NCBI GenBank assembly: GCA_964187785.1
Contig: OZ076409.1
Coordinates: forward strand, 17,734,001 to 17,798,000
DNA from: Amphiscolops sp. MND2022
Lineage: Eukaryota
Direction: 5' to 3'
Length of the DNA stretch: 64,000 bases
The notes beneath the pieces were generated by a model. That model searched no databases and had not been told where the DNA came from. It was given only the letters and a program-made list of their open reading frames with translations. The translations under genes and the position numbers were made by a program. This document shows positions 34,701 through 57,660 of the stretch, piece after piece (the first letter of the stretch is position 1; each line of letters opens with the position of its first letter).

Positions 34701-37700
34701 TACGTTTTCAAAACATATTCGATGGCAGTTTCCAAAAAAGTTTTGTACATTTTCTCAAAAAAGCGATCGGTATCGACCGGGGACTTCAGGCACAGAAAGT
34801 TATAATTGAAATTTAGGAGCTGCTGGGGTAGAGGAGCTGCTCTTCAGTAAGTCCCAGAACTGAATTAATAGAATAATTGAAGATAAATTAACCTTTGGCA
34901 TAATGAACAGCACCAACTCACATCCACTTTTTGGAATCGAACAGTGTTGTTTCTGTTTTTAAAAAATAAGAAAAAACTATTAAGATTTTGTCCACTCTGT
35001 CTATCAGATTGCAGTTTGGAAGCTAGGCACAAACGAATTATTGCACAAAGACTTGGCGGCTTCTTTTTCAACAATTGTTAAGCCAGATCTGCTAGGGCTC
35101 AGTCGTACTTCTGGGTGTCTATGGTCACGGTGTTTTCCTAGTGTCGCGTGCGTGCGCGAATTGAACCACTGACATTACGCAAGCGTCAATCAATGTCAAG
35201 ACAATCAAAATTGAGTGACGTTTAATCTTGAATCGATTCTACCGCTCGTTTACACTTATTTAACCGCTTACATAACCGCCTTAAAAAAGAAATGTTTTGT
35301 GATGTTCCGTCAGTCAAATGTGGCTGACCTTATTGTATTTGGTTCCTTTGTGTGTGTACAAAGGTCATCTTTAATTGAAACATTTGAGTTTGTATATTAA
35401 TAATGTTACTTTTGAGAGTTGTGTGTATGATTTGTAGGTAAACAAGACTCCTCGGTCTTGCCAAAAGAGAAAACGACCATAGGCCGAAAAAGATGATAAT
35501 TGTAAAGTTGTCACACCGATTCCTTTTCAATGTACTAAAAGTCAAGTACATTTTTTGGCGACCACAAGAAGTTTACCCCACATTTTCTTGAATTTTGATC
35601 GAGACGAAGACGAGATGCCAAACTGAAGGAGATTACCAGTTGAACCTCGCCATTATTTACAATCTACGAAAAAGAAAAATGTTAACTCTCCCGATGCTAC
35701 AAATCGTCAAGAAAGGTGGGAGTCATTGTACCCATTAGTACCCAAAGGAGGTGGAATCTGTGAGTACCCATTCTTTCAACACGGCTACCCGAAGCTCCCG
35801 CAAACCCTGAAATTACTACTTACAATCCCGAAGGCAGCCCCCGTAGCCGTTAGTTAGAGGAAACTGCGAAAAAAAAACTTTCGAGAAAAAACTCATTGTT
35901 GTGACATTTAAACTCTAAAACGGAACATCACAACCTATAAACAAGATACAGACGACCAAAAAAAAAACTAAATCAGAAAATTCCTAAAAGTTTAAATGGT
36001 CTCTCAATGGTTTATTTCATTGGCGCAAGCTGCCTTCATGGCCTAATGAGTAATTTGCCATATGAATCTTACAGGAAGATGTCTCACAAGGTTTTCACAG
36101 TTCGAGGTTTGAGTTTCAATCCAAAATCAATCAATAAACTCAAAATTCTGCAAAATCTTTTGAGCAAAGGCAAACTTGCATCCGGAAAAGACATAGTCAT
36201 TTGGCACGGTTGCATTAGCAACAGCATTTCCAAACATCGCTCGAATAATAACCAATCTCTACCTGTAGAGGACCTTGTGAGAGTCCTCAAGCCCCTAAAG
36301 AACCGCATTAAGGCCGTAATTTACCTCCAGCGCGACAAGTCCCCCAATATCGTGAAAGATCTTTAGAAAACTGGCATCCTGGTGCTAGACGCCAAGAAAT
36401 TGTTGTTGTCTCGTAAAAAAAGCCAGGTCCAGAGAAGTACTTACAGACCTCAAGCGCATCCATCCCTCAACGCAGGCCGAGTTGCGTTTGTTTAACACCG
36501 TTCTTGCTCATGAGGAGAATTTGAAGGGACTTGTCCGCTATCGAGGCAAGAAAGCGAACCACAAGGGACCCGGTAAAAAAGAAAGAGGTAAAAATAAGAC
36601 CTCAAAGTAAACCTCGTCGAGGCCTCATTTCTATCTTGGTAATCCAACCAATTATTTTCGAGCTCTGTCGCAGAGTGACTGCTAAATAACTCATAGCAGT
36701 TTCGGGTTCTCTCTGGCCAGGAACCGATTAAGACGATTAACACAGTCGCGGTGAAAGGTCAGAGAGTGGAATTTGTTTTTCATTAGCTCTAAAATTTTTG
36801 GTTCGGGCGTTTCTTAGTCCACTAACCGATTAAGACGCTCAACACAGTCGCGGTGACCGGACTAGAAACTTCTTTTGTTTGAGCCTTCAGCAGTCACTCT
36901 ACGACCAAGTTCTCCTACGAGCGAGTAGTTTCAAGTAGTTCTTTTTAAATCGGCGTAAATTTATGAAATTTAGCGTGATCAATGGAAGCTAAGTGGAAAA
37001 AACTTGTTGCGAGTCGGGATCGAGCGGTCGCCGATGTTGCTTCCTATAATCAGCTCATTGAGGATGCCATCGAGCGGAAATCGAGGACAGTTAAACTCGA
37101 TCGATTTGTGGACGAGTGTACTAAAGCCTTCCAAAGCGCAGTCGAATTCAATCAAAGCCTAGTACAACTGGCTTCAGGAGCTGAAAATGCCTCTCAATTG
37201 GTGCCTCCACTAGAGTCGTGGTTAGAAGAATTCGTCCGGAACCATGACGATAGAATGCGATATTATCATACTGCGAGAGCTGCCGCACCCCCCAGCGTGG
37301 CGAGCGCCTCCAAAAAATTGGACAGAGGTGCTTACCTGCGCGAACTGCCACATACAACGTACGATTCACTGTCAGGAAAATGTTCTGCGAAAAAGGGGCC
37401 TATTTCAGTGTCCCGAAGCGGTCGCGCTGCTAGCAAGCCCAGCTATCATTCGAATACTGAGGCTTTCAGCCAGGTCGCATCCCTGACCCCAAGCCAGCGT
37501 AAATTAGAACAGCGTCTAGCCAAGCTTAGGCGCGAGGAAGCTGAGCGTAAAGCGGAAGCTGAAATTTCTCTGGCTCGGCAAAAAGCAGATTTAGCTCGTC
37601 AACAGACTGATTTGCAAGCGAACTTGGACGTTCGGATCGCCGAAGAAAATCAACGGCAGATAGTCGCACAGGCCAGGATCGAAGAGGCAGTGTATGATAG

Positions 37701-57021: not shown

Positions 57022-57660
57022 TCAGACACAAGGGACAGGGGAAACACTCCACAATGAAGCCAGCTTACGATTGCGCAGGGCGCGACGTCGACGTTTGTTG
57101 AGTTTTTTATGCCGACTTTTCTCAGCAAGAACGCTTAAGTTTTCACTGTACCTCAACACTAAGAACAAAGACTTCATTTCTAAATCAGGCCGCTGGTGCA
57201 GTGAGGAGTATTCCCGTTGTTACATTCCCAAAGTTACATTACGTGCTTTGCCTTTGGAAATAAAATCAATCGAAACGTTCAATGAAAAAACTGTACTTTT
57301 CAGTGTTCGAAAGATATCAGGGACACCCTTACAATGGCAGCACACCACAGTTCTCAAACGTTTTTGACAATGTGAAAGAACTTTCAAGAGTTCGGGACAC
57401 AATAGCGGTCTGTTTCTGTTACTTGAGTGTTTGCTCAAAGAGTTATTCAACACATCATGCCACAAAATAACGTTTTTGTTTTCGCGTTTGAAGCATTTAT
57501 TCAACTGGAATTGAATGGTTTTCCTTTTATTGACAGCGGTCGGGTTACAACTCAACCCAGGTACAGTGAAAACACGCTTCTTGATTCGCTTACGAGTGTT
57601 TTTTGGCAATGTTTCTATTGCGTGATGGAGCGAGCTAGCTCCTAAGATGAGCACCATCAA
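57022..57660 (-). pseudogene. Extra ORF upstream of gag: SGNH/GDSL hydrolase-like protein with Arg/Lys-rich tail
   Basis: MVLILGASSL..TVPGLSCNP..VILWHDVLNNSLSKH..SKGKAR..M*QREYSSLHQRPDLEMKSLFLVLRYSENL..KKLNKRRRRALRNRK; one in-frame stop at 57220. Confidence 0.7.

Follow-up and report, generated by a model that had tools for sequence, protein, structure and literature searches.

Retrotransposons of the BEL/Pao type encode gag and pol and occasionally env. A 64,000-nucleotide stretch of contig OZ076409.1 of the Amphiscolops sp. MND2022 genome (positions 17,734,001 to 17,798,000 of the forward strand; hereafter the window) contains two such elements, A and B, each with an additional open reading frame (ORF) ahead of gag, and raises the question of what this extra gene encodes and why a transposon should carry it. 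The initial annotation, made from the sequence alone, had described the two ORFs as homologous, SGNH/GDSL-like and a feature of one BEL/Pao lineage. Our analysis leaves next to no doubt that the extra ORF is a real accessory gene and, on structure prediction, makes an SGNH fold of its product very likely, and the gene family is not BEL-specific. The reading that we prefer, to which we give a probability of about 0.45, is that the protein may have a membrane or lipid role by analogy with the ZfL2-1 esterase.

Element A, a BEL/Pao retrotransposon, spans 35142-43907 and is full-length, as seen from its paired long terminal repeats (LTRs), target site duplication (TSD), primer-binding site (PBS) and polypurine tract, and from the order gag (DUF1759), protease, reverse transcriptase (RT), Pao peptidase A17, integrase and DUF5641 (Table 1). 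No tRNA genes were found in the window. The extra ORF of A starts between the PBS and gag and is broken twice, as codon 120 (36364-36366) is a stop and the frame shifts near 36415-36440; in a close relative of the element, pol is a single open frame of 2177 amino acids (aa). The match of element B to its intact relative spans 57932 to 50221, and a 5' LTR was looked for in B and not found, only the 3' LTR being present. The stop within its extra ORF sits in a 9-nt insertion absent from intact relatives. Aligned over 119 aa, the two ORFs are 37% identical (pairwise E = 3e-28) and give no DNA match in a self-BLASTN of the window, which confirms both their homology and its conservation at the protein rather than the DNA level; all the shared motifs originally listed are present. 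The positions first assigned to the ORFs are right, but their extents needed revision: the coding homology of A ends at 36610 and not at 36642, both copies are broken, and the intact natural relatives are 194-202 aa long in most families rather than about 210 aa.

Intact copies of the extra ORF are common across the genome. First-look searches with the two window fragments gave 2,775 and 2,628 candidates (about 2,700) in 1.07 Gb, and most of the 150 scored per search had open frames near 200 aa. A profile built from 68 natural members retrieved 1,004 clusters at 50% identity (E <= 0.001) from 1.84 billion proteins. Fused forms in longer proteins numbered 0 among 8,000 candidates, which is weak evidence, and a scan of IMG/VR gave five pattern matches of which none was confirmed. 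Twelve loci in JGI metagenome records encode relatives; two of these have the order ORF, ORF1, endonuclease-RT (L238, L246), four have the ORF with a PHD-type ORF1, one has a BEL gag-like ORF (by eye) and five have no assignable neighbor. As their DNA matches to the loci of this genome are only short patches, the metagenome loci likely derive from other species. In one metagenome record, the ORF upstream of a family member (L249:2-484) has a motif resembling that of a GIY-YIG nuclease.

The fold was predicted from locus L074, an intact relative of A, for which AlphaFold returned a confident model (predicted local distance difference test [pLDDT] 91; predicted template modeling score [pTM] 0.84). 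The top Foldseek matches of this model were GDSL lipase 3p94 (E = 8e-5) and PAF acetylhydrolase (PAF-AH), and VIA-align over 48,161 chains placed the OatA catalytic domain first (Z 10.9, root-mean-square deviation [rmsd] 3.1 over 140 residues), its leading rows being SGNH/GDSL-type entries by title. A further structure search agrees; the ESM Atlas matches at 0.92 are GDSL clusters, with the Pfam family in 21-46% of cluster members, and a viral structure library gave chiefly SGNH or hydrolase domains of phage proteins (best E = 1.6e-3). The ZfL2-1 esterase structure, 4C1B, was absent among the matches listed, top rows only, in three PDB structure searches. Over 143 cluster representatives, Ser8 is conserved in 91%, Gly34 in 89%, Asn71 in 80% (Ser in 16%) and His152 in 93%, supporting the original assignment of SGNH blocks I, II, III and V, here made by secondary structure and an assumed register and not by residue-level superposition. 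Trp66, His67, Asp68, Asn72, His77, Arg109 and Glu158 are likewise 83-95% conserved; the family of element A in the window has Ser in place of the block III Asn.

The proteins are strongly basic, with a median isoelectric point of 10.3 and a net charge of +23; the core bears +12 and the tail +9. No transmembrane segment was found: the best 19-residue hydropathy has a median of 1.03 and exceeds 1.6 in only two of 68 members. These properties bear on the leading idea of the initial annotation, that the protein stands in for env in the egress or entry of BEL/Pao particles. The position before gag does recall sORF2 of the MDG1 group, described as a mediator of soma-to-oocyte transfer (PMC11952523), and the GDSL ORF3s of rotifer elements have been suggested to aid membrane passage (PMC5408684). 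However, neither hydropathy nor predicted secondary structure gives a transmembrane segment, and a signal peptide has no room, as the start Met in the model runs straight into strand 1. The carriers, moreover, include long interspersed nuclear elements (LINEs), which form no virus-like particles, and we consider such a role very unlikely.

Selection on the gene, proposed at the outset, is purifying. The ratio of nonsynonymous to synonymous substitutions (dN/dS, Nei-Gojobori) lies at 0.05-0.23 in 12 of 15 BEL pairs, while dS is saturated in the other three, as it is, at 62-77% protein identity, in three of five LINE pairs and the EnSpm pair. In the lineage of the window, the extra ORF is also tightly linked to BEL/Pao pol and LTRs, as the initial annotation had it: among 20 elements taken for the resemblance of their RT to that of A (about one row in seven of the similarity list), 19 carry the extra ORF upstream of gag, and the twentieth lacks its entire 5' half. 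In LTR carriers, the ORF lies inside LTR pairs, after the PBS. In a sample of 40 elements drawn with Pfam PF05380 (about every fourth row, plus two), seven carry the extra ORF, nine a different SGNH-like ORF at that position and 24 neither, absence being uncertain for 17 of the 24 because the stretch examined held no LTR pair. In an RT tree of 40 rows, built from the 84 of 104 loci that had enough RT and with near-copies collapsed, 21 ORF-bearing rows, A among them, are separated by a branch with full support from the other lineage, inside which two more lie beside elements without the ORF. Pairs among L054, L062 and L066 show discordant synonymous distances for ORF and RT (0.42 versus 1.08; 2.04 versus 0.38), which suggests recombination between BEL subfamilies.

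The different SGNH-like ORF forms a second family in the PBS-to-gag slot of other BEL/Pao lineages (L163, L164, L166, L168, L169, L171, L177, L179 and L183), at about 3400-4000 in element orientation and at 2300-2800 in L177. Its blocks look canonical, DxxH included, Pfam GDSL_2 matches L169 at E = 0.004, and the Atlas matches at 0.94 are GDSL clusters; profile-profile comparison gave no match between this family and that of the extra ORF. Relatives of the second family at about 36% identity occur as same-strand pairs about 7.9 kb apart, for example at C10:20164651 and C10:20172574 and at C5:30771595 and C5:30779518, an arrangement that would fit a gene inside both LTRs of another element family.

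To which elements the extra ORF belongs was assessed at 100 ORF-selected 10-kb loci, picked by hand for diversity and classified by hand. We counted 62 BEL/Pao elements (some deleted), 32 LINEs (two by RT fragment only), three Gypsy elements, two EnSpm-like elements and one unassigned locus. Most homologues in this sample thus lie within LTR elements, though the non-LTR share is large, and the gene is not a feature of one BEL/Pao lineage. In LINEs, the ORF precedes a separate ORF1 by 22-127 bp, followed by endonuclease-RT (eight copies with open ORF1, nine examined), and in seven of seven copy pairs a DNA identity of 94-99% begins about 50-240 bp upstream of the ORF and continues for 4.0-5.4 kb. 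The LINE carriers include lineages at only 26-35% RT identity. In the Gypsy family, the ORF begins 36 bp past the LTR end, before gag. An intact family member at L135:1135-1839 has no recognized adjoining carrier; upstream of it, a fragment resembling Copia RNase H was seen by eye, and 5 kb downstream there is a gag-protease ORF.

At three loci (L138, L140 and L208), an EnSpm-like cassette of BEN, SET-like and Tnp2 regions lies downstream of the ORF. The Tnp2 transposase (PF02992) is found in two of them (E = 6e-7 in L138 and 3e-4 in L140), BEN has a Pfam match at E = 2e-6, the SET-like match is weak (E = 0.04), and L208 has only the BEN and SET-like parts within the stretch examined. The cassettes (L138:2959-9735; L140:4620-9803; L208) are flanked by tandem arrays, with an inverted duplication at C6, and terminal repeats enclosing the ORF were not defined. 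An EnSpm-like DNA transposon is a likely carrier of the ORF.

The genome is dense in repeats, and tandem or nested copies occur in it, so the gene might be BEL-specific and its links to LINE, Gypsy and EnSpm might reflect remains of neighboring BEL/Pao copies. For the LINE and Gypsy carriers, this is refuted by the fixed spacing to ORF1 and the LTR end and by the identity that runs unbroken across ORF and LINE. The two metagenome records with the LINE gene order and the class-specific subfamilies of the ORF tree also argue against chance nesting; the EnSpm-like case, lacking defined terminal repeats, speaks for it, and as a general account it is scarcely credible. In that tree (43 proteins from the 117 of 118 loci that were usable, near-copies collapsed), the carriers are interleaved, with the EnSpm group sister to one LINE group (100/96) and the Gypsy row sister to another LINE row (100/100, both on long branches). 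Approximately unbiased (AU) tests reject a single clade for BEL (P = 3.4e-4) and for LINE carriers (P = 4e-48). We infer that the extra ORF passed between element classes several times.

The presence of one family in capsid-forming LTR elements, in LINEs and, likely, in a DNA transposon would imply a benefit independent of replication mode. This would suit an enzyme directed at the host, for example one that deacylates a silencing or germline factor, from which a transposon of any kind would profit. Such an enzyme would account for the likely DNA-transposon carrier better than a membrane role does. The conserved catalytic residues fit as well, the basic tail could serve as a nuclear localization signal, and the EnSpm-like carrier also has the BEN and weak SET-like regions. 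On the other hand, the literature examined holds no precedent, the host target is only hypothetical, and the EnSpm link consists of three loci without defined termini; we regard a host-directed enzyme as unlikely, though far from negligible.

How the ORF might be expressed is suggested by the distribution of ATG triplets. Across 14 LTR elements, whose kinship means that they do not count as independent, the sense strand has fewer ATGs than expected, both in the leader (40 versus 79.5 expected) and in the spacer between ORF and gag (17 versus 43.5), whereas the same elements show no depletion of antisense CAT and none in the flanks. The pattern would fit a transcript whose first translated cistron is the ORF, with ribosomes then reaching gag by reinitiation or scanning. 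Reinitiation after an upstream ORF was also considered, as 29 of 82 start codons abut a stop, yet there is no conserved upstream ORF and the idea was dropped.

Under the membrane or lipid reading, the extra ORF is a selected accessory gene that takes first place in BEL/Pao, Gypsy and LINE elements, before gag or ORF1. It would be a cistron of its own, translated first, and gag or ORF1 would be produced from downstream of it. Its product would be an SGNH serine esterase with a Ser-His pair but without the usual block V Asp, and its substrate, by analogy with the ZfL2-1 esterase, may be a lipid acyl ester. The basic surface would bind negatively charged membranes and help the RNA-protein complex of the element assemble or travel. 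The conserved catalytic residues favor an enzyme, and catalysis appears probable; the positive charge favors binding of anionic membranes or RNA. The esterase of the ZfL2-1 ORF1 protein (ORF1p) is described as active and as binding anionic phospholipids and liposomes mainly through surface charge, and has been proposed to aid assembly or transport of ribonucleoprotein on membranes (PMC3905857).

Several observations weigh against this reading. Three residues before His152, the family has mainly Lys, Arg, Ser or Tyr and never a conserved acid, so that the catalytic acid of block V (DxxH), a gap that had gone unmentioned in the initial annotation, is absent, and blocks I and III deviate from GDS and GxND. 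Pfam gives no Lipase_GDSL or GDSL_2 match at the curated cut-off for the window fragments, the 68 members (25 families listed) or 23 distant representatives, and a PDB sequence search with the family profile returned no match at E <= 10, the ZfL2-1 esterase included, which leaves the predicted fold as the basis of the ZfL2-1 analogy. The two close LINE pairs have a dN/dS of 0.38, and the kinship of the 14 elements tempers the ATG counts. A role in RNA particles leaves the likely EnSpm-like carrier unexplained, and the positive charge would suit RNA binding equally well. As to the missing acid, it is not universal in the SGNH fold, the Asp being reported in 23 of 30 structures, and SGNH structures in which a main-chain oxygen replaces it exist (PMC10792757). 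As to the sequence searches, a profile of the canonical esterases of this genome matches 4C1B at E = 6.6e-9 as a positive control, and profile-profile comparison found no match between them and the extra-ORF family. Pfam matches of 18 of the 68 members to TPR_ZFYVE26 (best E = 9e-5) were judged spurious given the SGNH fold.

The missing acid and the charge of core and tail would also agree with a noncatalytic RNA binder that chaperones the element RNA or steers it to the germ plasm, in the manner of the OSK domain of Oskar, which is described as RNA-binding and nonenzymatic (PMC10792757). OSK (PDB 5A4A) does match the model (Z 8.2, rmsd 3.8 over 144 residues), but it ranks 30th, beneath many enzymes. 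Oskar has no triad, the extra-ORF family keeps Ser, Gly, Asn and His at 80-93% conservation, and LINE and BEL carriers already possess zinc-knuckle or other ORF1 and Gag proteins; we therefore think an Oskar-like function improbable. A broader and still speculative proposal, on which we put more doubt than trust, is that the family is a new SGNH-fold enzyme acting as a universal transposon plug-in of this animal lineage. It would have been swapped time and again among BEL/Pao, Gypsy, LINE and EnSpm elements, always in first place, and would defeat a shared host barrier such as silencing or germline access, a second, unrelated SGNH gene having been captured independently for the same slot in other BEL/Pao elements.

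The features of the two elements are collected in Table 1. The window also holds tandem arrays unrelated to the extra ORF at 61468-63073 (unit of about 320 bp), 15665-16122 (84) and 19820-20000 (60).

Table 1. Features of elements A and B, in window positions.
Feature	Position	Strand	Basis and remarks
Left TSD CCTAG, element A	35137..35141	+	Sequence; same 5-mer at 43908-43912
5' LTR, element A	35142..35550	+	TG...CA, 409 bp; 97.8% identity with 43499-43907
PBS-like sequence, element A, directly after LTR	35556..35565	+	Sequence; same in intact relative L074
Extra ORF (predicted SGNH fold), element A	36007..36610	+	Broken; intact relatives with 92% identity have 200-aa ORFs; fold from relative L074
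gag and protease, element A	36982..40277	+	Two frames, 36982-38160 and 38085-40277; Pfam DUF1759 (E = 3e-18), DUF1758, aspartyl protease
pol, element A	40383..43529	+	Pfam: RT, Pao peptidase A17 region, integrase zinc finger, DUF5641
3' LTR, element A	43499..43907	+	Polypurine tract before, CCTAG after
Extra ORF (predicted SGNH fold), element B	57022..57657	-	Single in-frame stop 57222-57220; intact relatives with 89% identity have 198-aa ORFs
gag-pol, element B, decayed	50729..56869	-	84-88% DNA identity with intact relative L043
3' LTR, element B	50221..50728	-	82% to LTR of L043

Ever since esterases were first described in LINE ORF1 proteins, it has been an open question what they do for transposons. 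In the present case, a single SGNH family with about 1,000 clusters, invisible to Pfam, is under selection in LTR and non-LTR elements, and likely in a DNA transposon, of a single genome. This offers a natural comparison, with a small soluble protein apart from Gag and ORF1p and with sister elements that have the extra ORF, another esterase or neither; it opens the esterase role in transposons to direct tests and points to genes passing between classes of transposon. That transposons can carry SGNH genes is itself already known: such cargo is recorded in ORF1 of CR1, L2, RTEX and Penelope (PMC3905857; PMC13343379) and as the ORF3 that rotifer LTR elements have in common with Athena (PMC5408684; PMC6431247). 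The present genome likewise has canonical GDSL esterases directly 3' of Gypsy-type integrase and in LINE ORF1 (L143-L150, L154; L151-L153, L155-L156), both known arrangements. The literature searched, which left Repbase, subscription journals and supplements outside, holds no report of an SGNH ORF in BEL/Pao, nor of a stand-alone SGNH ORF before gag or ORF1, nor of the present SGNH family.

Among known systems, the ORF1p esterase of CR1, L2, RTEX and Penelope, as described for ZfL2-1 (PDB 4C1B; PMC3905857), resembles the extra ORF in its SGNH fold, predicted for the latter, its place at the 5' end of a retrotransposon, its conserved catalytic residues, its basic surface and its scattering over clades. 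It is, however, built into ORF1p as a domain linked to a coiled coil, whereas the extra ORF stands alone before a complete ORF1 or gag; the two share no sequence match, and the block V acid is missing from the extra ORF. Oskar OSK (5A4A) has the same fold and an incomplete triad but is without the catalytic residues that the extra ORF keeps. The sORF2 of the MDG1 group (PMC11952523) is another accessory ORF upstream of gag, in sense orientation and under selection, but is described as a small transmembrane fusogen, unlike the predicted soluble alpha/beta fold of the extra ORF. The texim genes of fish Helitrons (PMC4021074), set beside the extra ORF by description only, also place an SGNH gene on a DNA transposon, being host-derived multicopy genes akin to CR1 esterases and PAF-AH. 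The GDSL ORF3 of Vesta in bdelloid rotifers (PMC5408684) is SGNH cargo of an LTR element, is common to retroelement classes, has no transmembrane segment or coiled coil, and has been proposed to play an auxiliary membrane role. It occupies the ORF3 position rather than the 5' side of gag, and its described sharing joins Vesta with Athena, with no mention of BEL/Pao in the text examined, whereas the extra ORF is common to BEL/Pao, Gypsy, several LINE lineages and, likely, EnSpm.

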